A stretch of DNA of 64,000 nucleotides from the NCBI GenBank assembly GCA_045660785.1, contig JAZREL010000014.1, positions 4,849-68,848 of the forward strand, given 5' to 3'. Positions within the stretch are counted from its first letter, which is position 1. Each line of letters starts with the position of its first letter. Both the position numbers and the translations under genes were made by a program. Shown piece after piece: positions 12,292 through 49,157 of the stretch. Under the pieces are notes generated by a model. The model did no database searches. It had not been told where the DNA came from and was given only the letters and a program-made list of their open reading frames with translations. The DNA is from Eubacteriales bacterium (lineage in GTDB: Bacteria; Bacillota; Clostridia; Oscillospirales; CAG-272).

Positions 12292-12933
12292 ATGAAAGTA
12301 ATTGATTTAACACACACCATAAGGGAAGATATGAATGTTTATCCCGGCACAGAGCAACCGAAATTGAACGTAGCAAACACACACGAGCTTGACGGCTTCA
12401 AGGAAACGTTAATTACGATGTTTTCACACACGGGCACACATATTGACCCACCGTTTCATATTTTCAAGAACGGCAAAACGCTTGACAGCTACGATGCGGA
12501 TGCATTTGTCGGTCGCGCATTGGTAATTGATTGCCGCGATTTAAAGCTGGGTGAGAAAATTGAGCTTTCACTCATTCAAAAGCAAGAAAAAGCGGCAGGG
12601 AGTGTCGAGTTTTTGCTGTTTTGCACAGGATTTGATAAGAAGTGGGGCACGGATAATTATTATGACAATTACCCCGTTTTATCACGTGAAGCACTTGAAT
12701 ATATCATAGAGAAAAAATACAAGGGCATCGGCTTCGACGTGATAGGACTTGACCCTATCGGCTCACTTGACCTTCACCGCTTGCTATTTGAGCAAAGCGA
12801 AATGATAAACATCGAAAATCTTAAAAATCTTGATTTATGCATCGGTGGAGCGTTTACTTTTGTTTGCCTTCCGCTAAAAATTGCTAATTCGGACGGTGCA
12901 AGCGCACGCGCGATTGCCATTATGGAGGACTAA
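12292..12933 (+). CDS. Cyclase family protein (kynurenine formamidase-like)
   Basis: 213 aa. HTGTHIDPPFH metal-binding motif. Confidence 0.8.
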   Translation: MKVIDLTHTIREDMNVYPGTEQPKLNVANTHELDGFKETLITMFSHTGTHIDPPFHIFKNGKTLDSYDADAFVGRALVIDCRDLKLGEKIELSLIQKQEKAAGSVEFLLFCTGFDKKWGTDNYYDNYPVLSREALEYIIEKKYKGIGFDVIGLDPIGSLDLHRLLFEQSEMINIENLKNLDLCIGGAFTFVCLPLKIANSDGASARAIAIMED

Positions 12934-14602: not shown

Positions 14603-14772
14603 TTTGCCCTCTCCTTATCATTTCTTATAAATACTCTATCACAATATGACAAGAAATACAATATAATTTGATAAAAAATACAATTGTATTGTAATTTCTT
14701 TTATTATATAATATAGAAAATGGGTGCGTTTTGCTTTTTTTGGTAGGTGTGCGCCCTTTTGGAGGAAACAAA

Positions 14773-15828
14773 ATGGATTTTTCTAAAATGCCCGACTTTT
14801 TTGCTGGCTCCCTTTCATCAAGGGAGGCGTGGGAGCAAAAAAGAACGGAATTAAAATCACTTATATTAAACGAGGAGTACGGCACGTTCCCCTCTCTTCC
14901 CTCTCCCTCTATTACGGTTGAGCGACAAGGCGTCAACTTTGCAGGCAAGGCGGATTGGGACCGCGTGAGCTTTGAATTTTCTCAAGGCGAAAGGACACAC
15001 ACGGTTGAAGCCGAGCTGATTTTGCTAAAAAACGAGCCGCTAAACAAGCCGCTCTTTATTTACATTGACTTTTCTAAGGAAACGCCTTCAAAATATTTAC
15101 CCGTTGAGGAAATTTTAGATAGCGGCTGTAACATTTTCAAGGTTTTCTATCAGGACGTAACAAGTGACGACGGGGATTTTGAAAACGGTCTTTGCGCGCT
15201 TGCCTCGGGCGGTGGCGAGATATACGGAAAAATTGCCGTATGGTCATATTTTTTAAGAATTATGGCAGACTATCTTTGTTCAATCGGCTACACGGGCACG
15301 CTTGCGGTTGCAGGACATTCTCGCCTTGGAAAAACCGCACTGCTTACCGCAGCTTACGACGAAAGATTTATGCTTGCTTGCGTAAACAACAGCGGCTGCG
15401 CGGGTGCGTCATTCTCGCGCTTTAAGGAAAATGGCGAGGAAACAATAAAGGACATTGTGGGCACGTTCCCATTCTGGTTCAAGAAAAAATTCCACTCGTA
15501 CGTAGATAACGAGGATGCCTTACCCTTTGACCAACATATGCTTCTTGCCTTGGTTGCGCCAAGGTGCGCACTTATCGGCTGTGCCGAGCTTGACTATTGG
15601 GCGGACAACGATGGCGCTTATCACTCTTGCCTGCTTGCAAGCGGCGCGTGGGGGGCTTACGGCAAGACGGGAATTTTCCCTGCGCCTCATTCATATAGCG
15701 AGCTGACAAAGGACAATCTATATCCAACGTTAATGGGGAAAGAGCTTGGCTACTTTATAAGAAGCGGCACACATTTCTTGTCCCGTTACGATTGGCAAAA
15801 ATACATAGAAAAAATAAAGGAGCTTTAA
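14773..15828 (+). CDS. Alpha/beta hydrolase, CE15 glucuronoyl-esterase-like
   Basis: Start at MDFSKM after GGAGG. Nucleophile elbow AGHSRLGKTAL resembles the CE15 G-x-S-R-x-G motif. PFDQHMLLALVAPR and a C-terminal GTH are also present. Confidence 0.5.
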   Translation: MDFSKMPDFFAGSLSSREAWEQKRTELKSLILNEEYGTFPSLPSPSITVERQGVNFAGKADWDRVSFEFSQGERTHTVEAELILLKNEPLNKPLFIYIDFSKETPSKYLPVEEILDSGCNIFKVFYQDVTSDDGDFENGLCALASGGGEIYGKIAVWSYFLRIMADYLCSIGYTGTLAVAGHSRLGKTALLTAAYDERFMLACVNNSGCAGASFSRFKENGEETIKDIVGTFPFWFKKKFHSYVDNEDALPFDQHMLLALVAPRCALIGCAELDYWADNDGAYHSCLLASGAWGAYGKTGIFPAPHSYSELTKDNLYPTLMGKELGYFIRSGTHFLSRYDWQKYIEKIKEL

Positions 15829-17489: not shown

Positions 17490-18251
17490 ATGAAGCTTGG
17501 AGCACAATTTTATACTTTAAGAGATAAATGCAAGGACATAAAGTCCTTTGCTGATACACTTGCGCGCGTGGCTGAAATCGGCTTTACCGAGGTTCAAATT
17601 TCGGGCGTTTGCGCATATGAGCCCGAGTGGCTAAACGAAGAGTTAAAGAAAAACGGGCTCAGCTGTGTCCTTACACACTGGGGACCCGAGGACGTAAGAG
17701 ATAACACGCTTGAGGTTATTAAAAAGCACGAGGTTTTCGGATGTAAAAACATCGGCATCGGATGTATGCCGGGTTGGGTAAGCTGGGATAACTACGTTGC
17801 TTTTGCACGTGATTTTAAGGAGCCCGCAAAAATTATTGCACAAAACGGCGCAAAGCTCTTTTATCACAACCACGCGTTTGAATTTGCGCGCACACCCGAT
17901 GGCGAGCGCTACTTTGACAAAATCTTAAACGTGTTCACCCCTGAGGAGCTCAGCATTACGCTTGACACTTATTGGGCGGCGCTTGCAGGCGTTGACCTTT
18001 GCGACTTAATTCCAAGTCTTAAGGGCCGTCTTGAATGCGTGCACCTAAAGGACCTTGCGGTTGATGCCGAGAAAAATGCGCCTCGCATGGCAGTAGTTGG
18101 CGAGGGAAACATAAACTTTGAAAAGCTTCTTCCTCTTTTTGATGCAGCAGGCACGAAGCATTTGCTTATTGAGCAGGATGACACACAGGGCGAATGTCCG
18201 TTTGAATGCTTAAAGAGAAGCTACAAAAACTTGAAAGCGATGGGATTATAA
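17490..18251 (+). CDS. Sugar phosphate isomerase/epimerase (TIM barrel)
   Basis: 253 aa. YHNH...VHLKD...IEQD metal-ligand pattern. Confidence 0.7.
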   Translation: MKLGAQFYTLRDKCKDIKSFADTLARVAEIGFTEVQISGVCAYEPEWLNEELKKNGLSCVLTHWGPEDVRDNTLEVIKKHEVFGCKNIGIGCMPGWVSWDNYVAFARDFKEPAKIIAQNGAKLFYHNHAFEFARTPDGERYFDKILNVFTPEELSITLDTYWAALAGVDLCDLIPSLKGRLECVHLKDLAVDAEKNAPRMAVVGEGNINFEKLLPLFDAAGTKHLLIEQDDTQGECPFECLKRSYKNLKAMGL

Positions 18252-21346: not shown

Positions 21347-21937
21347 TTAAAAATTAAAAAATCCTGAAATTGAGTTTGTCACGAATGATATATCGTAGCC
21401 AAGCTCGGTAAGCACAAGGTACGCACCTTGCAGAACCACTGCAAGCGCACCGAAAATCACACAAAGTGTGAAAACTACGGTTAAAACGTAATTCTTCACC
21501 TTCATAAAGATAAATGAAAGGATTGTGAATATGCCGTAAACCTGAGATGCTTTAGGTTTCTTGGCTGACTGACAAACGGTGATAAGCACGCCAAAATACG
21601 GTGGGCAAAGGAGCGTGAGCATAAGTAAGAAAAAGTTTACTCTATCCTTGGATTTTGGGGCTTTTTCCGCCTTTTGCTCCTTTGGTGCTTTTTCTGCCTT
21701 TTGCTCCTTTGGTGCTTTTTCTTGTTTTGGTTGAGGGAGTGTCTGTTTTTTTGCGTTTTTCGCTTCCTTCTTTTCAAGCTTTTCCGCTTTTTTCTCCTCT
21801 TTTTTTGCATCCTTTTTCTTGACCGCAGGAACTACGGTAATCACGTTTGGCGCACCCTCCTCATCTTGAGTGGCGCCGCAAAAGGTGCAAAACTTTGCGC
21901 CGTTTTCTATTTCCTTGTTACATTTAATGCAATTCAT
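21347..21937 (-). CDS. Zinc-ribbon membrane protein with Lys/Glu-rich repeat linker
   Basis: 196 aa. N-terminal CxxC...CxxC ribbon (MNCIKCNKEIENGAKFCTFCG), APKEQKAEK repeats and C-terminal TM helices. Confidence 0.6.
   Translation of the reverse strand: MNCIKCNKEIENGAKFCTFCGATQDEEGAPNVITVVPAVKKKDAKKEEKKAEKLEKKEAKNAKKQTLPQPKQEKAPKEQKAEKAPKEQKAEKAPKSKDRVNFFLLMLTLLCPPYFGVLITVCQSAKKPKASQVYGIFTILSFIFMKVKNYVLTVVFTLCVIFGALAVVLQGAYLVLTELGYDISFVTNSISGFFNF
21660..21730 (-). repeat. In-frame 27-nt tandem repeat (2.6 copies)
   Basis: GCTTTTTC(C/T)GCCTTTTGCTCCTTTGGT occurs twice plus a partial third copy. It encodes the APKEQKAEK repeats. Confidence 0.8.
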
Positions 21938-21949
21938 AAAGCTACCTCC

Positions 21950-22330
21950 TTACGCCATAATCGCGGAGAGGTCAATCACACCCGCATAGTAAAGAGCGAC
22001 TACTACCGCCAAGGCAATAACTACCGTTAAGCAAACAAGTGCGACAATAAGTCTTGGAATAAACCATTTTAAGAACCACGGCAAAATTGCGCAAAGACCG
22101 TAAGCCCTTGCAGTGCGCGGTTGAATATCAATTTTTGAAGCCCACAAAACAAAGCCGAAAATCACGCCCTGCGGCACAAAAAGCGCAAGCAAAACGGTTA
22201 AAAACGCGATTGCACAATTTACGTGCTCGGGAATTTCAACGTTTTTGATTTTATTTTCCGTTTGGCAACCGCAGCTTGTGCAAATCACCGCTTCGTTATC
22301 AAGCTCCTTTTTACATTTTTGACAAATCAT
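21950..22330 (-). CDS. Zinc-ribbon membrane protein
   Basis: 126 aa. MICQKCKKELDNEAVICTSCG ribbon plus 3 TM segments. The TM region resembles that of the preceding gene. Confidence 0.6.
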   Translation of the reverse strand: MICQKCKKELDNEAVICTSCGCQTENKIKNVEIPEHVNCAIAFLTVLLALFVPQGVIFGFVLWASKIDIQPRTARAYGLCAILPWFLKWFIPRLIVALVCLTVVIALAVVVALYYAGVIDLSAIMA

Positions 22331-22451
22331 ATTTTTCTCTCCTCATATCCCTTCAAAAGGGCTTATAAAATTATTTTAGCACACCAAGGTATAATTGTCA
22401 AGGGTGGCTTTTTGTCAAAAAAGCGGTGCCGAGGTGGCACCGCAATGCTTA

Positions 22452-22811
22452 TTAACCGATAAATCTGTTTGTCAAAATAATTCCAGCTATAGTTACAACC
22501 GTCAGAATCACCGCGCTTACAACAATGGAAACGATAGAAAGAATTCTGCCAATTTTCACCCTTGGATTATATACCAAGGTTGTTTTATTATATAAGGAAT
22601 ACATAACGAGTGAAGCTATTGCAAAGGTATAATTCATGCTGGCAAGCGCGATAATTCCGGAAATAAAGCAAAGAAGGGAAAAAACCCTAACAGACGGGCA
22701 AAATTTCACGTCCTTTTTTAATTCCGCGGTTCTGGTAAGCGCACCGCCACAGCTTGGGCAATGGTTGAACCCTTCCTTTTCAAGCTTGTTTTTACAATAT
22801 GGACACTTCAT
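22452..22811 (-). CDS. Zinc-ribbon membrane protein
   Basis: Start at MKCPYCKNKL after AAGGAGAAGG (9 codons into the track ORF). CPYC...CPSC ribbon plus TM segments. A GCGGTGCC/GGCACCGC terminator lies downstream. Confidence 0.6.
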   Translation of the reverse strand: MKCPYCKNKLEKEGFNHCPSCGGALTRTAELKKDVKFCPSVRVFSLLCFISGIIALASMNYTFAIASLVMYSLYNKTTLVYNPRVKIGRILSIVSIVVSAVILTVVTIAGIILTNRFIG

Positions 22812-22945
22812 ATACCTTCTCCTTAAAGCTGCTTTCATTTGACATTATTTTACCACACGCGTGCGCGCTTGTCAACATAAAACTCCACTTTTAGAAAAAG
22901 AGGGCAACGGCAAAGCCGCCAAGCCCTCTTTCTGTAATTTTTAGT

Positions 22946-23338
22946 TTAGCCCTGGAAAAGTAATGCAAATAAAAAAGCGTAGACAATAACGTAATAAAGT
23001 ATTAGAGCTACGATAGCGAGCGCCCAGATGATAATTCCGATAACGCCGCATACAGAACCAACCTTAACCATTGTGTGTGATTCGCCTGCTTTTTTCTTGT
23101 ATAATGTTCCGGTAATCAAAGCGGCAATACCGCCGACAATTCCTAATCCCCAAATGATGGAGGCAATACCCGTTGCCATACAAATGATAGCAAGCACGAG
23201 TGGCTTTTTCTTTACCGGTGTCTTTATCTCTACGTAATCCGGTTCAACTTTTTCCTGCTCTTCCACCCTTGGCTCCTCGGGAGTGCAATTTGGGCAAGCT
23301 CCGTTTATAAGCTCAGTGCCACATTGTGAACAAAACAT
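22946..23338 (-). CDS. Zinc-ribbon membrane protein (DUF4190-like C-terminus)
   Basis: Start at MFCSQCG after AAAGGAGAG. CSQC...CPNC ribbon and Gly-rich TM pair. Confidence 0.6.
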   Translation of the reverse strand: MFCSQCGTELINGACPNCTPEEPRVEEQEKVEPDYVEIKTPVKKKPLVLAIICMATGIASIIWGLGIVGGIAALITGTLYKKKAGESHTMVKVGSVCGVIGIIIWALAIVALILYYVIVYAFLFALLFQG

Positions 23339-23433
23339 ATTTTTCTCTCCTTTCATACGTCAAACGACATATTTCTACTTTTATTTTATCACGGTACAGA
23401 CATTTTGTCAATATACTTGCAATTTGTTACAGC

Positions 23434-27686: not shown

Positions 27687-28002
27687 TTTGCCTGCAAGAA
27701 TAGCAAGGGCTTTAGAGGACGAGAAAAAAGTGCGAGCGAGCCGGCGTCGTCGTACTAATGTACGACAGAGGGCTTGGTCGCGATTAGAAAAGCAGAAAGG
27801 AGATTTTCTTTTTGAAAATCTCTACCTTAAAAGGTTCGGTGGCGTCTTGACCTGCGAACATAAAATTAAAATTGCTTTTCGTTTTAAGAGGTTCCCCGAA
27901 CCGAATAGGGGTCCTCAAAGCGAAGAATGAGCTTTGGGGTTCTCGTAGTTGAGGTTTTGGGGTTCACGTTTTTCGTGCTGTAAAGAACTTGAAAGGAGAA
28001 AA

Positions 28003-32499: not shown

Positions 32500-33525
32500 A
32501 TGAAAACAGTATGCTTTGGCGAAATTATGCTCCGCTTAAATCCGGCGGGATACACAAGATTTATTCAAACAGATACGTTTGGCGCAACCTACGGTGGCGG
32601 TGAAGCAAACGTTGCAGTTTCTCTTGCTAACTACGGCATTGATGCATCCTACGTTACAAAGCTTCCAAGCCACGAAATCGGTCAAAGCGCGGTTAACTCA
32701 CTCCGCAGATACGGCGTTGACACAAGCGACATCGTAAGAGGTGGCGAGCGCGTTGGTATTTACTACCTTGAAACAGGCGCATCACAAAGACCGTCAAAGG
32801 TTATTTACGACCGTGCATATTCAGCTATTGCTCTTGCAAAGAGAAGCGATTTTGATTGGGAAAAGATCCTCGACGGCGCAAATTGGTTCCACTTTACAGG
32901 CATCACTCCGGCACTCGGCGGTGAGCTTCCCGAAATTTGTATGGACGCACTTAAGGTTTGCCGCGAAAAGGGCATCACCACAAGTTGCGACCTTAACTAC
33001 CGCAAAAACCTTTGGTCAACAGAGGAAGCAGGCAAGGTTATGGGCGAGCTTATGAAGCTTGTTGACGTTTGCATTGCAAACGAGGAGGACGCTGAAAAGG
33101 TATTCGGCATTAAGGCAGAAAACACAGACGTTGACGCAGGCGTTGTTAACCACGAGGGCTACAAGAGCGTTGCATCACAGCTCTCTGCCCGTTTCGGCTT
33201 CAAGCGCGTTGCTATTACACTCCGTACAAGCATTTCGGCAAACGACAACGTTTGGGCGGCTATGCTCTATGATGCAAACGAAAACGAATACTATTTCTCA
33301 CGCTCATATAACATCCACATCGTTGACCGTGTTGGCGGCGGTGACTCATTCGGCGGCGGTCTTATCTACGCTTCCTTGATGAACAAGTCAAGCCAAGACG
33401 TTATCGAATTTGCAGTTGGGGCATCATGCCTCAAGCACACAATTATCGGTGACTATAACTTAGTTAGCGTAAAAGAGGTTGAAGGCCTCATCAAGGGCGG
33501 CGGCTCAGGACGCGTTCAAAGATAA
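32500..33525 (+). CDS. kdgK: 2-dehydro-3-deoxygluconokinase (PfkB family)
   Basis: 341 aa. FGEIMLRLNP, GGGEANVAV and DRVGGGDSF motifs. Confidence 0.85.
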   Translation: MKTVCFGEIMLRLNPAGYTRFIQTDTFGATYGGGEANVAVSLANYGIDASYVTKLPSHEIGQSAVNSLRRYGVDTSDIVRGGERVGIYYLETGASQRPSKVIYDRAYSAIALAKRSDFDWEKILDGANWFHFTGITPALGGELPEICMDALKVCREKGITTSCDLNYRKNLWSTEEAGKVMGELMKLVDVCIANEEDAEKVFGIKAENTDVDAGVVNHEGYKSVASQLSARFGFKRVAITLRTSISANDNVWAAMLYDANENEYYFSRSYNIHIVDRVGGGDSFGGGLIYASLMNKSSQDVIEFAVGASCLKHTIIGDYNLVSVKEVEGLIKGGGSGRVQR

Positions 33526-33591
33526 CTTCCAAGCTTAAGGACAATCCCTCCGTCAACTACGTTGACACCTCCCTTTGCACAAAGGAGGCAA
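33526..33591 (+). mobile_element. Solo-end palindromic mini-element (TIR-family member) inserted right after the kdgK stop
   Basis: CAATCCCTC + hairpin GTCAAC-tac-GTTGAC + CTCCCTTTGCACAAAGGAG. This has the same three-part architecture as the right TIR of the DUF559 cassette at 40482. Confidence 0.6.
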
Positions 33592-33621
33592 GGCGGCGGA
33601 AGCGGACGAGTTCAAAGATAA
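33592..33621 (+). pseudogene. Displaced, recoded duplicate of the last 9 codons + stop of kdgK
   Basis: GGC GGC GGA AGC GGA CGA GTT CAA AGA TAA, versus the live GGC GGC GGC TCA GGA CGC GTT CAA AGA TAA. There are 5 nt differences, all synonymous (including TCA/AGC Ser). Confidence 0.7.
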
Positions 33622-38233: not shown

Positions 38234-40141
38234 ATGAAGGACGGATATATAAAGGTTAAATCAATCTCGCCGCGCACAGAGGTTGGCGGAGTTAGCTTTA
38301 ACAAGGAAGAAATCGTAAAGGAAATCAAAAGCGCAATCGGCCAGGGCGTAAAAATCCTCGTTTTTCCCGAGCTTACGTTAACGGGTAAGACGGCGGGTGA
38401 TATGGCTTACAGCGGCGTTATACTAAACGCTTGTGAAAAAGCGCTTCTAAACATCAAATTTGCGACACAGGGTAGCGATATTTTGGTTTTTGTCGGCGCT
38501 CCGCTTCAGTATAAGGGTGCATCCTATTCCTGCGCGGTTGCAATAAAATCGGGTGAGATTTTGGGCGTTGTGCCTAAGATTGGAAAAATGCCGTACTTTA
38601 AGGATTTTATAAAAATCGGTGACGAGAAATATCCGTTTGGCACGGATTTACTCTTTACCTGCAAGGAAATTAGTGACCTGACCATTGGCGTTGTCATCGG
38701 TGACGCCGTTGCAAATCCTTCACCGAAGGGATTTTTCCTTTGCGAAAACGGCGCAACAGTTATTGTTAACCTCTCGGGCAGCTACGAGCTTGTTTCGAGC
38801 GAGGAAATAAGACGCGCCGCGTTTGTTTCAAAGAGTTATGCCACGAGAAGTGCTTATATCGTTGCAAATCCAAGCGAGGACGAGTCAACGACGTCTAACG
38901 TTTATTCCGCTCATAATTTCATTGTGGAAAACGGTGATATTTTAGCGGAAAGCAAGCCGTTTGAGAAGAAAACAGGCGACTGTGTGTCTGAAATTGACGT
39001 TTCTTACCTTGCGGGCAAAAGAAATTCCGTCGGTGCGCGCGCCGAGGCAATAACGGACGTTTCCTTCTCTTTTAAGCTTGAAAAAACCACTCTTACAAGA
39101 AAAATTTCAAAAACACCTTTTTTTCCTGAAGGCAAGGAAGAACTCAAAAGGCACTGTGAAAAAATCCTCACAATGCAGTCACGCTCCCTTGCCAAAAGGT
39201 TGACTGCATCTTATTCCAAGGGAATGGTGCTTGGAATTTCGGGCGGCCTTGACTCCACTCTTGCCCTTCTTGCCTGCGTTAAGTGCGCGGACTATCTCGG
39301 TTGGGACAGAAAAACGGTCACCGCCATTACAATGCCCTGCTTTGGCACAACAAAGCGCACAAAATCAAACGCGACCGAGCTTTGCAAATCCCTTGGAGTT
39401 ACGCTTCGCGAAATAAACATCTTTGAAGCAACAAGGGTTCATTTCAAGGACATCGGACACGACGAAAACGACCATAGCGTAGTTTACGAAAATGCGCAAG
39501 CACGTGAGCGCACACAAATTTTAATGGACGTGGCTAATTCAATCGGCGCGCTTGTTATCGGCACGGGCGACCTTTCCGAGGTTGCACTCGGTTGGTCAAC
39601 CTACAACGGTGACCATATGTCGATGTATAATATAAATTCCGCCCTTCCAAAGACCTTAATCAGACACGTGGTCGAGCATTTTGCAAATATAAGCGACGAA
39701 AACGTGAAAGGAATTTTGCTTGATATTCTTGATACTCCCGTTTCCCCCGAGCTTCTTCCAGCCAAGGAAAACGGCGAAATTGAGCAAAAAACAGAGGACA
39801 TTGTCGGCCCATACGAGTTACACGATTTCTTTATTTACAATTTTGTAGGGCGCAAATTTGCCCCCTCAAAGATTTACCGCTTGGCGCTTTACGCCTTTGG
39901 TGGAAAATACGACGGCGACACCGTTTATAAATGGCTCACCGTATTTATCAAGCGCTTCTTTACTCAGCAGTTCAAGCGCTCCTGCTCACCTGACGGAATC
40001 AGAATCGGCTCAGTTTCCCTCTCAAAAAATGATTTTTCAATGGTAAGCGATTTTTCGTACAAATCATTTTTAGAGGAGTTAAATTCATGCCTCCCTTGTG
40101 CAAAGGGAGGGGGACCGCTTGCGGTGGAGGGATTGGTGTGA
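38234..40141 (+). CDS. nadE: Glutamine-dependent NAD+ synthetase, C-terminus replaced by read-through into an inserted element
   Basis: 635 aa. N-terminal nitrilase-like domain plus a synthetase domain (GISGGLDST, NAQARERT). The last 19 aa (SCLPCAKGGGPLAVEGLV and nearby residues) are encoded by the element's inverted repeat. The native ...EELNENK* ending survives in the displaced copy. Confidence 0.85.
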   Translation: MKDGYIKVKSISPRTEVGGVSFNKEEIVKEIKSAIGQGVKILVFPELTLTGKTAGDMAYSGVILNACEKALLNIKFATQGSDILVFVGAPLQYKGASYSCAVAIKSGEILGVVPKIGKMPYFKDFIKIGDEKYPFGTDLLFTCKEISDLTIGVVIGDAVANPSPKGFFLCENGATVIVNLSGSYELVSSEEIRRAAFVSKSYATRSAYIVANPSEDESTTSNVYSAHNFIVENGDILAESKPFEKKTGDCVSEIDVSYLAGKRNSVGARAEAITDVSFSFKLEKTTLTRKISKTPFFPEGKEELKRHCEKILTMQSRSLAKRLTASYSKGMVLGISGGLDSTLALLACVKCADYLGWDRKTVTAITMPCFGTTKRTKSNATELCKSLGVTLREINIFEATRVHFKDIGHDENDHSVVYENAQARERTQILMDVANSIGALVIGTGDLSEVALGWSTYNGDHMSMYNINSALPKTLIRHVVEHFANISDENVKGILLDILDTPVSPELLPAKENGEIEQKTEDIVGPYELHDFFIYNFVGRKFAPSKIYRLALYAFGGKYDGDTVYKWLTVFIKRFFTQQFKRSCSPDGIRIGSVSLSKNDFSMVSDFSYKSFLEELNSCLPCAKGGGPLAVEGLV

Positions 40142-40533
40142 ACAGACGTCACAACAAGCTACTCGTACCATTAGCAAAGAATCTTCGAAAAGATATGACG
40201 GATGAGGAAAAACACTTGTGGTATGATTTTTTGAGAACCTACCCTGTTCGCTTCATTCGCCAAAAAATAATAGACGGCTATATAGTAGATTTTTATTGTG
40301 CAAAAGCTAAATTGGTTATTGAGCTTGACGGTTCTCAACACGGCGAAGAAAAAAACGCAATAAAAGATTCTGCGCGCGATTTTGAACTCTCGAAATACGA
40401 CATAAAAGTCATAAGGATACCTAATCATAAAATTTGGAATAACTTTAAGGGCGTTTGCGAGTACATTGACTTTCAAGTTCTCCAATCCCTCAGTCAGCAT
40501 AGCTGACAGCTCCCTTTGCACAAGGGAGCCAAA
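40085..40533 (+). mobile_element. DUF559-nuclease cassette bounded by about 46-nt composite terminal inverted repeats
   Basis: Left end, 40091-40136: CTCCCTTGTGCAAAGGGAG + GGGGACCGCTTGCGGTG + GAGGGATTGG. Right end, 40482-40528: CCAATCCCTC + AGTCAGCATAGCTGACAG + CTCCCTTTGCACAAGGGAG. The outer 19-mer and inner 10-mer are exact reverse complements. The middle is a different hairpin in each end. Confidence 0.65.
40138..40506 (+). CDS. DUF559 domain endonuclease (Vsr/PD-(D/E)XK-like)
   Basis: 122 aa from GTG (VNRRHNKLLVPLAKNLRKDMTDEEKHLWYDFLR...YIVDFYCAKAKLVIELDGSQH...). The ATG at 40087 is an alternative start but lies inside the palindrome. The stop falls in the right-end hairpin. Confidence 0.75.
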   Translation: MNRRHNKLLVPLAKNLRKDMTDEEKHLWYDFLRTYPVRFIRQKIIDGYIVDFYCAKAKLVIELDGSQHGEEKNAIKDSARDFELSKYDIKVIRIPNHKIWNNFKGVCEYIDFQVLQSLSQHS

Positions 40534-40650
40534 TCCCGCTCACCTGACGGAGTTCGTATTGGCTCGGTTTCCCTCTCCAAGAACGACTTTAAAATGGCAA
40601 GTGACTTTTCATACAAATCATTTTTAGAGGAATTAAACGAAAATAAATAA
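40534..40650 (+). pseudogene. Displaced, recoded duplicate of the last about 37 codons + stop of nadE
   Basis: Encodes SPDGVRIGSVSLSKNDFKMASDFSYKSFLEELNENK*. Over the 33 codons shared with the live copy, 15 codons differ: 12 synonymously and 3 by replacement (I/V, S/K, V/A). Confidence 0.75.
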
Positions 40651-40666: not shown

Positions 40667-41101
40667 ATGAAAGCATTACTTTTAAAAATTCCCGCATTAG
40701 TTGCAATTTGTTTGAGCTTGTTAAGCCTGTTGCTTGTTTTGTTTATGGTTATTTGCTCCGTAAACGAAAACCCTGCGGAGCAAGAAGGATTTTCGCCTTC
40801 ATTTACTTTTTGGATTTTTAGCATTTTGACCGCTCTTATTAGCATTATTTTTTTCTATGCCGACGGAGTTATGGCTATAGTAAACGCCATACGTAAAAAC
40901 AACGTTATTTTTAATATTATTTTTGCAATTGTTATATTTATCAGCCCTATTTTGCTATTTACGGTTGGTGCCTCAGATGGCAGAGGGTTTATAATATGGA
41001 ACGTTTATTACCTTGGGCTTTTATCGCTCGAAGCAGTTTCCATCATTTTTCTCATTAAAAAAATTCATAAAGAGAACCCCAAGCCTCAAATTTCGGCTTG
41101 A
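40667..41101 (+). CDS. Hypothetical 4-TM membrane protein
   Basis: 144 aa. AAAAGGAGAAA SD and four hydrophobic segments. Confidence 0.5.
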   Translation: MKALLLKIPALVAICLSLLSLLLVLFMVICSVNENPAEQEGFSPSFTFWIFSILTALISIIFFYADGVMAIVNAIRKNNVIFNIIFAIVIFISPILLFTVGASDGRGFIIWNVYYLGLLSLEAVSIIFLIKKIHKENPKPQISA

Positions 41102-41117
41102 GGACCCCTTGTCAAAC

Positions 41118-46350: not shown

Positions 46351-46388
46351 AAAATGCACGGCATTTCGCCGTGCATTTTATTATTTTC
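46349..46388. terminator. Bidirectional rho-independent terminator
   Basis: ATGCACGGC-atttc-GCCGTGCAT with flanking A- and T-runs. Confidence 0.7.
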
Positions 46389-46420
46389 GTAGGGTACGAC
46401 GCCCTCGGCGTACCGTTTTC

Positions 46421-46456
46421 TTATTTGTTAAGAAGTGTTTCAACAAGTGTGGGTGC
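46421..46456 (-). pseudogene. Displaced, recoded duplicate of the last 11 codons + stop of alaS
   Basis: Encodes APTLVETLLNK*, versus the live ALALVETLLSK*. 8 of 36 nt differ, including synonymous Leu recodings (CTC/CTT, TTG/CTT). Confidence 0.65.
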
Positions 46457-46538
46457 TTCTTTTCGCCTCCCTTGTGCAAAGGTGAGGTGGCACGACTTGT
46501 CGTGACGGAGGGATTGACCGTTTGCTTTAGCAATTATT
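46457..46538 (-). mobile_element. Solo-end palindromic mini-element (TIR-family member) inserted right after the alaS stop
   Basis: The plus strand reads CTCCCTTGTGCAAAGGTGAG + GTGGCACGACTTGTCGTGAC + GGAGGGATTG. This is the three-part TIR architecture, and its orientation relative to the host gene matches the kdgK copy. Confidence 0.6.
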
Positions 46539-49157
46539 TTATTTGCTCAAGAGTGTTTCAACAAGTGCAAGCGCATCGGCAATTTTGGAGATGTCCTTGC
46601 CGCCGCTCATTGCGCTGTCGGGGCGTCCGCCGCCCTTACCGCCTGTTACTGCGCTAACCTCGCCAAGGATTTTGCCTGCGTGTGCGCCGTTTTTAACTGC
46701 ACCCTTACCGCATACTGCGATAAAGTTGAGCTTTTCGCCTGAATGGATTGCAAATACAGCAACTGCGTTTTCGTCCTTGTCCTTGATTACGTCACCAAGT
46801 GAACGAACCGCGTCAGCACCCATATCACCAAGGTTTGCGGTGATAACGTTGAATGCGCCAACTGCTTTTGCGCTGCTGATTAAGTCGTTAACTCTTGATG
46901 AAGCCATCTTGGAGTTAAGAGATTCAATCTCGCGCTTGAGAGCTTTTATTTCCTCATTTACCGCGCCTGCACGCTTAGCAATATCGTTTACGTTTTGGCA
47001 CTTAAGCTCGCTTGATGCCTTTTCAAGGAGATTTTCCTTGTTTTCAAGGAGTGAAAGCACGCCGTAGCCCGTTGTCGCTTCAATTCTGCGCACGCCTGCC
47101 GCAACGCCAATCTCGGAAATAATCTTAAACATACCTGCCTTTGCGGTATTGTCAAGGTGAGTACCGCCACAAAGCTCGGTTGAATAGTCGCCCATTTTAA
47201 CCATACGTACAACCTTGCCGTACTTTTCTCCAAAGAGAGCCATTGCACCGTTTTTACGTGCGGTTTCAATATCTGTTTCGAGTGTTTCAACCACTGTGCC
47301 CGAAAGGATTGCCTCGTTTACAAGTGCTTCAACCTCTTTGATTTCGTCCTTTGTGAGTGCTTGGAAGTGTGTAAAGTCAAATCTGCCGATTCTTTCATCA
47401 ACGTATGAGCCCGCTTGCTCAACGTGTGTGCCGAGAACCTTGCGGAGTGCGGCTTGGAGCAAGTGAACGGATGAGTGGTTTCTTGCAATAGAAGCACGTC
47501 TTGCGCCGTCAACCTGGCAGTTGAGCGTGTCGCCAACCTTTACTGTGCCGCTTGCAATTTTACACATATGAATATATACGCCGTCTGATTTTTTGGTGTC
47601 AACAACCTCAATTTCAGCATTTTCGTTTGTAAGTGCGCCTGTGTCGCCAACCTGACCGCCGCCCTCACCGTAGAATGAGGTAGTGTCGAGAACAACGGAG
47701 CATTCGCCCTCGCTTACTTCGCTTACGCTTTCGCCGTTTTCGTCAATAATTGCGATAACCTTGCCGCTTGCTTGGAGCGTGGTGTAGCCCTCGAACACAG
47801 TCTTTGGAAGCTCCAAGGATTTTTCCTTGTCCTGCCAACCGCTAATGCTTGCACGTGCGCTTCTCGCTCTTTGCTTTTGCTCCTGCATAAGCGCTGTAAA
47901 CTTGTCCATATCGGTGCCAAGTCCGTTTTCCTCGGCAATTTCACGGGTTAAGTCAATTGGAAAGCCAAAGGTGTCGTAAAGCTTGAACGCGTCCGCGCCG
48001 TCAAGAGTATCCTTGCCGCTTTCCTTTGCTTCCTTAATAAGATTTTCAAGAATTGAAAGTCCTTGGTCGATGGTTGCGGCAAAGCGCTCCTCCTCAAGAG
48101 CAAGAACCTTTTTGATGTAGTCTGATTTTTCCTCAAGCTCGCGATAGCCATCCTTGCTTTCGCCAATTGCAACCTCGCACATTTCAACAAGGAATGCACG
48201 CTCAATTCCAAGGAGCTTACCGTGACGGCAAGCGCGGCGAATGATACGGCGAAGCACGTAGCCCCTGCCCTCGTTTGAAGGAATAACGCCGTCGGAAATC
48301 ATAAACATTGCGCTTCTTGTATGGTCGGTGATAACGCGGATTGAAATATCATCTGCGGCATCCTTGCCGTAGGTTTTGCCTGAAATTTCGCACACGGTGT
48401 CAAGGATTTTACGTACGGAGTCAACCTCGAACATATTGTCAACGTCCTGCATTACGCAAGCAAGACGCTCAAGACCCATACCTGTATCGATGTTCTTTTG
48501 TGCAAGCTCTGTATAGTTGCCTTGTCCGTCGTTGTTGAACTGTGAAAATACGTTGTTCCAAATTTCCATGTATCTGTCGCAGTCGCAGCCCGGCTTACAG
48601 TCGTCTGAGCCACAGCCGTGCTTAATTCCACGGTCAAAGTAAATTTCGGAGCAAGGGCCGCAAGGACCTGAGCCGTGCTCCCAGAAGTTATCTGCCTTAC
48701 CGAGGCGAACAACGTGCGCAGGGTTAACGCCGATTTTGTTTACCCAAATATCGTACGCTTCCTCGTCGTTTTCGTAAATTGACGGCCAAAGAAGCTCACC
48801 GGGGATTTCAAGTGTAACGGTTAAAAACTCCCAAGCAAACTGAATTGCCTCCTCCTTGAAGTAGTCACCGAAGCTGAAGTTGCCAAGCATTTCAAAGAAC
48901 GTGCCGTGGCGCGCGGTGTGACCAACTCTTTCAAGGTCAGGTGTTCTTATACACTTTTGGCAGGTGGTAACTCTCTTTGAAGGAGGCACAACCTCACCTG
49001 TAAAGAACTTTTTCATCGGAGCCATACCCGAGTTTATAAGAAGAAGGGATTTATCGTTGTTTGGAACGAGCGAAAAGCTGCCAAGACGAAGGTGTCCCTT
49101 GCTTTCAAAATAGGAAAGATATTTTTCTCTTAAATCGTTAAGTGATGTCCATTTCAT
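46539..49157 (-). CDS. alaS: Alanine--tRNA ligase
   Basis: Start at MKWTSLNDLREKYLSYFESKGH (18 codons into the track ORF). Class II motifs, editing domain and C-terminal DHHA1-like GGGRPD. Confidence 0.95.
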   Translation of the reverse strand: MKWTSLNDLREKYLSYFESKGHLRLGSFSLVPNNDKSLLLINSGMAPMKKFFTGEVVPPSKRVTTCQKCIRTPDLERVGHTARHGTFFEMLGNFSFGDYFKEEAIQFAWEFLTVTLEIPGELLWPSIYENDEEAYDIWVNKIGVNPAHVVRLGKADNFWEHGSGPCGPCSEIYFDRGIKHGCGSDDCKPGCDCDRYMEIWNNVFSQFNNDGQGNYTELAQKNIDTGMGLERLACVMQDVDNMFEVDSVRKILDTVCEISGKTYGKDAADDISIRVITDHTRSAMFMISDGVIPSNEGRGYVLRRIIRRACRHGKLLGIERAFLVEMCEVAIGESKDGYRELEEKSDYIKKVLALEEERFAATIDQGLSILENLIKEAKESGKDTLDGADAFKLYDTFGFPIDLTREIAEENGLGTDMDKFTALMQEQKQRARSARASISGWQDKEKSLELPKTVFEGYTTLQASGKVIAIIDENGESVSEVSEGECSVVLDTTSFYGEGGGQVGDTGALTNENAEIEVVDTKKSDGVYIHMCKIASGTVKVGDTLNCQVDGARRASIARNHSSVHLLQAALRKVLGTHVEQAGSYVDERIGRFDFTHFQALTKDEIKEVEALVNEAILSGTVVETLETDIETARKNGAMALFGEKYGKVVRMVKMGDYSTELCGGTHLDNTAKAGMFKIISEIGVAAGVRRIEATTGYGVLSLLENKENLLEKASSELKCQNVNDIAKRAGAVNEEIKALKREIESLNSKMASSRVNDLISSAKAVGAFNVITANLGDMGADAVRSLGDVIKDKDENAVAVFAIHSGEKLNFIAVCGKGAVKNGAHAGKILGEVSAVTGGKGGGRPDSAMSGGKDISKIADALALVETLLSK

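Follow-up and report, generated by a model that had tools for sequence, protein, structure and literature searches.

We describe here a short structured insert at the 3' end of alaS, the gene for alanine-tRNA ligase, in a 64,000-nt stretch of a Eubacteriales genome (contig JAZREL010000014.1), hereafter called the window. The gene lies on the minus strand (46539-49157) and matches Pfam tRNA-synt_2c (E 3e-197), tRNA_SAD and DHHA1; its product has 872 amino acids as called in relatives, and the open frame reaches 49211. The stop codon occupies 46539-46541 (minus strand), and the gene ends ...KIADALALVETLLSK, i.e. ALALVETLLSK. These last 11 in-frame codons with their stop (46539-46574, minus strand), termed tail A, form a functional, diverged replacement tail. 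Beyond them, in the direction of the gene, come an insert of exactly 82 nt (46457-46538) and then a second gene end, tail B (APTLVETLLNK*; 46421-46456, minus strand). Tail B is the resident tail, displaced into the 3' untranslated region, untranslated and lightly decayed. Between the tails there are 8 differences in 36 nt, two leucine recodings among them (ctc ttg vs. ctt ctt).

The insert contains no open reading frame (ORF). It is composed of a 22-nt spacer that follows the tail A stop (aataattgctaaagcaaacggt; 46517-46538, minus strand), a single 52-nt module with two hairpins (46465-46516, plus strand), and an 8-nt filler that leads from the module to tail B (gaaaagaa; 46457-46464, minus strand). 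The filler may represent decayed codons of the resident gene, which read GE in the relative L001 (loci from other genomes carry L numbers). In the occupied allele, the module sits within the last ~13 codons of the gene. On the plus strand it reads G-CCTCCCTTGTGCAAAGGTGAGG-TG-GCACGACTTGTCGTGAC-GGAGGGATTG. A conserved G is followed by hairpin 1 (46466-46487; CCTCCCTT-GTGCA-AAGGTGAGG, with a 1-nt bulge), by hairpin 2 (46489-46506), which is variable and holds a G.A mismatch, and by the box GGAGGGATTG (46507-46516). Five occurrences of the hairpin-1 consensus were counted in the window, where shuffles predict 0.01; such copy counts, together with orthologous copies in independent assemblies, rule out an origin of the module by chance or artefact. 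An earlier reading of the window from its letters alone (the sequence-only reading) had reported the insert and both peptides, the eight differences with their leucine recodings, and the plus-strand module sequence, and all of these hold at the positions given above.

That reading had also placed terminators after the second tail. One is indeed present, an intrinsic terminator formed by a bidirectional hairpin and a T-run (46351-46379, minus strand). The first of the supposed terminators is a separate element that resembles repetitive extragenic palindromic (REP) sequences; it consists of GTAG and the palindrome GGTACGACGCCCTCGGCGTACC (46389-46414, plus strand) and is distinct from the module, which is tied below to nucleases of the DUF559 family. 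The REP-like unit stands between tail B and the terminator in the window, and it is found also in L001 (~12745-12770) and in L205 (~12635-12660), in the latter with compensatory changes (GGGACG...CGTCCC) and without the DUF559 module. In some relatives it is adjoined by a Y1_Tnp gene of the IS200/RAYT type (RAYT, REP-associated tyrosine transposase), which scores 25.5 bits in L002 and 28.8 bits in L003 (Pfam cutoff 23). The match in L001 falls under this cutoff at 19.2 bits, and the window has no Y1_Tnp gene there. The Y1_Tnp genes near alaS in L002 and L003, like the sub-cutoff one in L001, are not bracketed by modules.

Two sister loci in the window, located by repeat search and by direct reading, have modules of identical architecture. 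At the end of nadE lies a complete unit of ~450 bp (40089-40530, plus strand), made up of a left module (40089-40135), a DUF559 gene (40138-40506) that is its sole ORF, and an inverted right module (40483-40530). The in-frame nadE tail A (39980-40083, plus strand; 104 nt) reads on into the left module; nadE tail B (40534-40649, plus strand) comprises 104 nt that are 83% identical to A, plus the last codons ENK*. The proportions of differing synonymous (pS) and nonsynonymous (pN) sites between these two tails are 0.57 and 0.07, respectively. The third locus is a kdgK-like (PfkB) kinase gene (32500-33525) that is followed by a single module (33542-33589, minus strand). Its 30-nt tails occupy 33496-33525 (A) and 33592-33621 (B), with a spacer at 33526-33541, and the second tail reads GGGSGRVQR*. 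The sequence-only reading had called the alaS insert a solo-end copy, and the two-hairpin architecture and conserved boxes that it shares with the complete nadE unit bear this out. Its count of three loci with the order host tail, element, alternate host tail is also correct (alaS, kdgK and nadE), and the arrangement recurs outside the window, in L001, L208, L080, L085, L120, L205 and L290-L293. The claim that the insert keeps the same orientation relative to the host gene holds for the two-tail loci; single modules follow no such rule under a crude ORF-based gene model.

The nadE unit is closely fitted to its host gene. The host stop codon TGA (40139-40141) overlaps the DUF559 start codon GTG (40138-40140) as GTGA, and the same overlap is present in L002 (~17570-17580), which suggests that translation of the putative nuclease is coupled to that of nadE. 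The box of the left module lies 5-7 nt before the DUF559 start codon and therefore also provides the ribosome-binding site for the nuclease gene; the DUF559 stop codon falls inside the right module. The nadE frame itself extends 18 codons into the left module (..SCLPCAKGGGPLAVEGLV*); in annotation, modules add C-terminal extensions to host proteins, as to the nadE product, and they leave orphan gene ends resembling pseudogenes. In the displaced nadE tail B of L002 (17020-17200) and of L003 (18610-18700), the first ~20 nt of the left module are present in frame (..EELDSSLPCAKELDENK and ..EELNSCLTCAKGDTNK, respectively), which suggests an earlier cycle of insertion and deletion at the same site.

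Occupied sites, empty sites and the two tails

The sequence-only reading had called for a comparison with empty sites, and such sites exist. Among relatives with 89-94% AlaS identity, the alaS 3' end is occupied in three cases, empty in four and marked by a relic in one. The occupied sites are those of the window, of L001, which has the same module and the same tail-B boundary with an unrelated 17-nt spacer and a different tail A, and of L208, in which module and tail B have both decayed. The site is empty in L204, where a single tail is followed by the terminator, and likewise in L003, L205 and L206/L207; in L002, only a relic of hairpin 1 remains after the stop codon. The window, L001 and L204 are about equidistant from one another (89-90% nucleotide identity), and therefore the site was gained or lost inside this tight group. 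The kdgK site behaves alike. It is occupied in the window and in L290-L293, which have a tail A, a homologous spacer, a variant module and a tail B at the same boundary, and it has a single tail in L294. Thus, presence or absence at one defined site of a conserved gene is seen at both alaS and kdgK; that alaS is itself polymorphic, and that further copies are abundant elsewhere, speaks in favour of the sequence-only reading, which had made its claim hang on these two points. The tail-B boundary is constant across lineages at alaS (window, L001, L208) and at kdgK (window, L290, L293), though the modules differ. The notion that alaS is a general target was discarded: only one module was found nearby among 80 distant metagenomic alaS 3' ends (342 kb of loci).

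The comparison with empty sites also tells the two tails apart. Compared with the window, the single alaS tail of L204 has 3 differences in 36 nt from tail B and 7 from tail A; the corresponding differences from the L001 tails are 4 nt (B) and 6 nt (A). At kdgK, the serine codons are TCN in all A tails and AGC in all B tails and in the single tail of L294. The A tails cluster together, and the B tails cluster with the functional single tail of L294; the differences among the B tails, and between them and that single tail, are all synonymous (26 to 0 over pairs). Tail B is closer than tail A to the functional single tail in all five comparisons, and it is therefore of the resident type, the in-frame tail A being a separate lineage. 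The sequence-only reading had seen a recoded duplicate of the gene end after the insert; the two tails and the recoding are real, but the roles are the reverse, with the downstream tail the resident and the upstream, in-frame tail the recoded newcomer. The function of alaS is preserved because the occupied allele brings this in-frame replacement tail upstream of the module.

Nine tail pairs, drawn from seven genomes, together give a pS of 0.51 and a pN of 0.10. Were tail B a decaying duplicate, with the upstream copy alone under constraint, a pN/pS ratio near 0.5 and heavily damaged B tails would be expected. The second tail is therefore not a neutrally decaying duplicate. Some B tails nevertheless show decay; in the window, the alaS tail B has L-to-P and A-to-T changes at conserved residues, and those in L208 and L207 are worse, so that tail B itself is not functional. 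We infer from these comparisons that tail A would travel with the occupied allele, and that tail B would be either freshly displaced or refreshed by recombination with empty alleles. A diversity-generating retroelement was considered as a source of the tail differences and rejected: the differences involve all four bases, are mostly synonymous and are not adenine-specific, and no reverse transcriptase lies beside the loci examined. The kdgK spacer, judged by eye, weakly resembles the end of the DUF559 ORF, whereas the alaS spacers do not.

Elsewhere, too, modules come and go. Filled and empty pairs in phages, with flanks 94-98% identical, record recent gains of modules. In one pair, an insert of ~70 nt lies between a terminator and the ribosome-binding site of the next gene, with a direct repeat of ~6 bp (CGGTAA); in another, an exact 46-nt module lies between two neighbouring modules with no duplication; in a further pair, a doublet begins at the conserved G right after ...CTAAAAA. 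A single module can thus be a discrete inserted unit in its own right and is not necessarily a leftover end. Loss has left a footprint at nadE in L207, where a deletion between the two palindromic hairpin-1 copies has produced a tail A, half a hairpin in frame and a tail B. Flanking repeats are enriched around bacterial units but not around viral ones: they exceed the 99th percentile of shifted controls in 19 of the 147 bacterial and in 2 of the 96 viral units. The repeats at two-tail loci are 30-170 nt long. Since most copies lack a second tail, the two-tail arrangement describes a subset of the copies and is not a property of the element.

The module family and the DUF559 nuclease

The module represents an end of a small mobile element whose core is a DUF559 gene and whose complete form is a cassette of ~450 bp bracketed by inverted modules. 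The family consensus is G-SCYCCCTTGTGCAAAGGGRGS-hairpin 2-GAGGGATTG, in which hairpin 1 is SCYCCCTT-GTGCA-AAGGGRGS, the stem of hairpin 2 varies and GAGGGATTG is the end box. A scan of species-representative genomes returned at least 120 stretches with the module, nearly all of them from gut metagenome-assembled genomes assigned to Oscillospiraceae, Faecousia, Eubacteriales and Clostridia. With a relaxed pattern, at least 213 copies were found in 124 sources among the matches listed; these include 104 single modules and 55 convergent pairs, the latter divided into 48 ORF-less inverted doublets and 7 full units. The ORF-less doublets (100-150 nt) and the full units share the same modules. Viral contigs contributed 104 further modules in 600 kb, almost all of them single. 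In 15 of the 16 viral contigs that have two or more modules (loci L209-L278), all copies lie on one strand.

Both hairpins covary across the family. The outermost pair of hairpin 1 is G-C in 102 copies and C-G in 89, and the third pair is T-A in 150 and C-G in 40. The sequence-only reading had pointed to the variable hairpin as the place to look for compensatory change, and the outcome is positive: hairpin 2 has 117 distinct stems among 201 distinct copies, and a stem of at least 5 bp forms in 89% of copies, compared with 18% after shuffling and 31% when arms are swapped between copies. Individual loci show the same constraint. Between the window and L001, the alaS module has a single difference in 52 nt, against 19-26% divergence in the tails around it. 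Orthologues of the right nadE module differ only in the loop of hairpin 2 and at 1 nt, in genomes with saturated synonymous sites (pS ~0.75), and the left nadE module has undergone the compensatory change GGACCGC/GCGGT to GGACCAC/GTGGT.

Two further explanations of the module sequence were set aside. An asymmetry between strands (G.T vs. A.C) might have signalled a single-stranded intermediate, but the excess in hairpin 1 falls at a position constrained by the search pattern, and in hairpin 2 the counts (7 vs. 0, p 0.016) are too weak to support one. A coding repeat was likewise rejected: in GC-rich viral contigs, frames cross the module in all six frames, and no long ORF passes through 186 of the 214 bacterial copies. 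Calls that place modules inside genes are artefacts of the crude ORF-based gene model, and with such naive models no signal appeared for a rule of orientation or of proximity to stop codons among single modules. No Rfam 15 covariance model matched anywhere in the window at its gathering score, and only sub-threshold chance hits fell around the insert. The annotated phage and plasmid collections yielded no match to the 450-bp unit. Neither the motif sequence nor a description of the family was found in the literature searched, in which the element family thus appears to be undescribed.

The family has neighbours. A wider superfamily of two-hairpin modules with other hairpin-1 loops or end boxes is visible at L275 (13340-13560), L251, L222, L243, L284/L286 and L290-L294. 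Its variants include CTCCCCTAACAGGGGAG with GGAGGGGTTAA, CCTCCCTCCCCGAGGGAGG with GGAGAGGG, CCCCCTTTCAACAAGGGGG, and GCTCCCTCATCAGAAGGAGC with TCTCTCCCTC. Such variant modules often stand side by side in head-to-tail arrays, and at some loci half a hairpin has undergone tandem slippage (CTTTGCACAAGGGAGCC repeated).

The protein of the nadE unit matches Pfam DUF559 (E 8e-27) and the structure of an 'endonuclease-like protein' (PDB 3HRL, E 1e-11); its direct similarity to the catalytic domain of the homing endonuclease I-Bth0305I (3R3P) is weak (E 0.03). To our knowledge, DUF559 is not a known transposase. Its orthologues have a pN/pS of 0.16-0.18, which indicates purifying selection. Two modules bracket five of six DUF559 genes in the scan loci (887 kb) and the window, which together hold 208 modules. 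A survey of PD-(D/E)XK proteins groups Vsr, DUF559 and I-Bth0305I in one clade (PMC3424549). In a screen for genes flanked by inverted repeats, DUF559 was enriched 14-fold (PMC9881135), which agrees with the bracketing by modules; the element itself is not described there. No treatment of DUF559 as a mobile unit was found in the literature searched. The protein family is very large: of 8000 candidates scored in one search, at least 7799 were relatives at E <= 1e-10. Close relatives are very often encoded on contigs shorter than 1.5 kb, which suggests that DUF559 units break metagenome assemblies.

Proposed origin and competing explanations

At a probability of about 0.5, we favour the view that the insert after alaS represents a lone, non-autonomous module from a mobile element associated with DUF559, held at the gene end together with a replacement tail and gained or lost by homologous recombination, with the nuclease as the likely initiator. 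A DUF559 enzyme encoded elsewhere, for instance by the copy that lies 6 kb from the insert, would act in trans and nick or cut the empty target or the module ends. Homologous recombination, both within the gene body and within the tail or the flank downstream, could then carry the occupied arrangement from one related lineage to another, a form of spread that would resemble homing with neither intron nor intein; recombination between tails A and B could remove the arrangement again. Tail A is recoded with respect to resident-type tails (serine TCN vs. AGC at kdgK, the Leu-Leu codons at alaS), and this recoding may shield the occupied allele from re-targeting or collapse. More tentatively, Vsr-like (DUF559) cassettes could be an undescribed class of selfish element, one that would colonise the 3' ends of housekeeping genes (alaS, nadE, kdgK) without intron or intein, would rely on a recoded tail both to keep the gene working and to confer immunity, would cycle between occupied and empty sites by recombination, and would shed single modules that spread through bacteria and phages.

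Precedents for such inserts exist in organelles. In Allomyces atp6, Ophiostoma rps3 and Phlebia atp6 and cox2, an endonuclease insert brings a foreign in-frame C-terminus (PMC4019555). Like these free-standing homing genes, the loci described here have a replacement tail upstream, an endonuclease insert and a displaced resident tail downstream; they are patchily distributed among relatives, and their tails differ as orthologues do. The organellar cases, in contrast, involve LAGLIDADG or GIY-YIG enzymes and have neither structured inverted-repeat ends nor abundant ORF-less derivatives, and at alaS the endonuclease gene is absent. Homing endonucleases of the EDxHD/Vsr-like type, such as I-Bth0305I and those of 'fractured genes' (PMC3239194, PMC2677866), are also associated with insertions in conserved genes and fall in the superfamily clade of DUF559 (PMC3424549). 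Those enzymes reside in group I introns or between split inteins and have an added DNA-binding domain, whereas the DUF559 protein found here, of ~122 amino acids, is a catalytic core only, with no intron or intein.

A number of facts weigh against the favoured view. There is no nuclease gene in the alaS insert or in any kdgK insert, and the viral contigs that hold 104 modules have no DUF559 gene in 600 kb. The DUF559 core of ~120 amino acids has no obvious sequence-specific DNA-binding domain, and no cleavage site or target is known. Most modules have no second tail, and clean insertions give a duplication of at most ~6 bp. No divergent co-conversion tract is visible upstream of alaS tail A. 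Further, the tails are short, such that all tail counts are small, and the A and B nadE tails of one genome share lineage-specific codons, which could mean duplication in situ or gene conversion. Finally, identical or near-identical repeats flank the units in L002 (115 nt), L066 (143 nt) and L289; some of these are non-coding, some include part of a module, and the identical non-coding repeats point to a step that generates duplications and not to import.

These last observations lend themselves to a different account, in which the module or cassette enters at or just past the stop codon and 30-170 nt are duplicated on insertion, the copies then diverging in place; widely staggered nicks made by a nicking enzyme, or template switching of replication at hairpins, are candidates for such a step. 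The layout agrees exactly, in that the element lies between two copies and its right module directly adjoins the point where tail B begins. Besides the repeats in L002, L066 and L289 and the shared nadE codons, tandem arrays of tail, spacer and module in L085 and L205 are in line with it; in L085, the native tail, which comes last, uses other codons for the same peptide. The tails, however, diverge like orthologues (pS 0.51, pN 0.10) where this account predicts a ratio near 0.5 and a damaged B. All five comparisons place tail B nearer than tail A to functional single tails, only synonymous differences separate the kdgK B tails, and the filled and empty pairs among the loci compared are clean, none showing a long duplication. 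We consider this explanation rather unlikely as a full account of the loci, but long duplication may have been the founding event, followed by exchange between lineages.

It is more doubtful still that the module is a host or selfish repeat of the REP kind, moved by some other enzyme (e.g. a Y1/RAYT protein) and kept as a structure in 3' untranslated regions for mRNA stability or termination, with the second tails incidental and DUF559 a mere neighbour. In organisation, the module family does work most like REP/REPIN-RAYT systems. In both, short, structured, palindromic repeats are dispersed in intergenic DNA as single copies, inverted doublets and arrays (as in REP, REPIN and BIME), a small nuclease gene can lie between inverted repeat copies, and the repeats outnumber the enzyme genes (here 208 to 6). 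Strong structural constraint, the abundance of modules in phage contigs without DUF559, and the Y1_Tnp gene and true REP-like hairpin that adjoin alaS in relatives would all suit this explanation. The family departs from it in that no GTAG signature is present in the modules and that what they bracket is a gene for a Vsr-like PD-(D/E)XK protein (DUF559), not one for a Y1 (HUH) transposase. The Y1 gene is unbracketed, whereas DUF559 is bracketed in five of six cases, with its ribosome-binding site in the left module and its stop in the right. Moreover, each module comprises two hairpins, the stem of one being free in sequence, subfamilies are numerous, and some copies lie in gene ends with a replacement tail; the clades of A and B tails are left unexplained by a repeat of this sort.

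Miniature inverted-repeat transposable elements (MITEs) offer a related comparison. As in MITEs, the ends of the ORF-bearing unit recur in ORF-less doublets of 100-150 nt, and one filled and empty pair has a target duplication of ~6 bp. Unlike MITEs, the family has no known transposase family, its single ends insert alone, one clean insertion lacks a duplication, and copies within a genome are not near-identical. A target-site duplication of fixed length is not seen: it is ~6 bp (CGGTAA) in one pair, absent from another and 30-170 nt at two-tail loci.

Least probable, in our estimation, is that the inserts are remnants of a site-specific integrative element driven by a recombinase and directed to gene 3' ends, whose attP carried a copy of the gene end and which was mostly deleted to leave attL, a remnant and attR: the imperfect direct repeats of the gene 3' end around the insert, with an element-side copy that keeps the gene intact, are the classic att arrangement, the same tail-B boundary recurs in independent lineages at alaS and kdgK despite differing modules, and the expected pattern (A with a native 5' and foreign 3' part, B with the converse) is hinted at in L001, but the inserts measure only 82-450 bp, the largest form encodes nothing but DUF559, the repeats vary in length from 30 to 170 nt, the same modules insert elsewhere without an att-like repeat, and no tyrosine or serine recombinase was found in or beside any insert examined, where the neighbours are YpsA-like proteins, small unknown proteins and, in some relatives, Y1_Tnp.

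Implications and further repeats in the window

The alaS locus shows how an essential bacterial gene can host selfish DNA at its end and still remain intact. If the favoured account is true, the arrangement would be a bacterial equivalent of the organellar 'endonuclease plus spare C-terminus', in which a conserved coding 3' end is occupied with no need for splicing, and a role would be assigned to DUF559, a very large family without known function. By comparison with known kinds, the family would be kin both to REP- and MITE-like repeats and to endonuclease inserts with spare gene ends, and the mechanism proposed above likewise derives from comparison. The modules also mark recombination boundaries in gut Clostridia and in their phages, and a small nuclease that recognises a defined hairpin module could serve as a reagent.

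Three other repeats in the window deserve mention. A sequence like hairpin 1, CTCCCTTTCATCAAGGGAG, lies at 14808-14826 (minus strand), in frame in the N-terminal part of an ORF (14731-15828), without hairpin 2 or the end box; it is either a chance occurrence or an old in-frame footprint of the kind seen in L207 nadE. Four copies of a ~54-nt sequence, 67-76% identical to the reference copy and 390-530 nt apart, lie at 21897-23351, each ending ...CATATTTTTCTCTCCT, and resemble the beginnings of small paralogous genes arranged in tandem on the minus strand. Finally, two 38-nt arms at 27907-27944 and 41072-41109 are 82% complementary to each other, and each is hairpin-like in itself (GAGAACCCCAA...GGACCCCT); possible identities are a further dispersed hairpin repeat or shared terminators.

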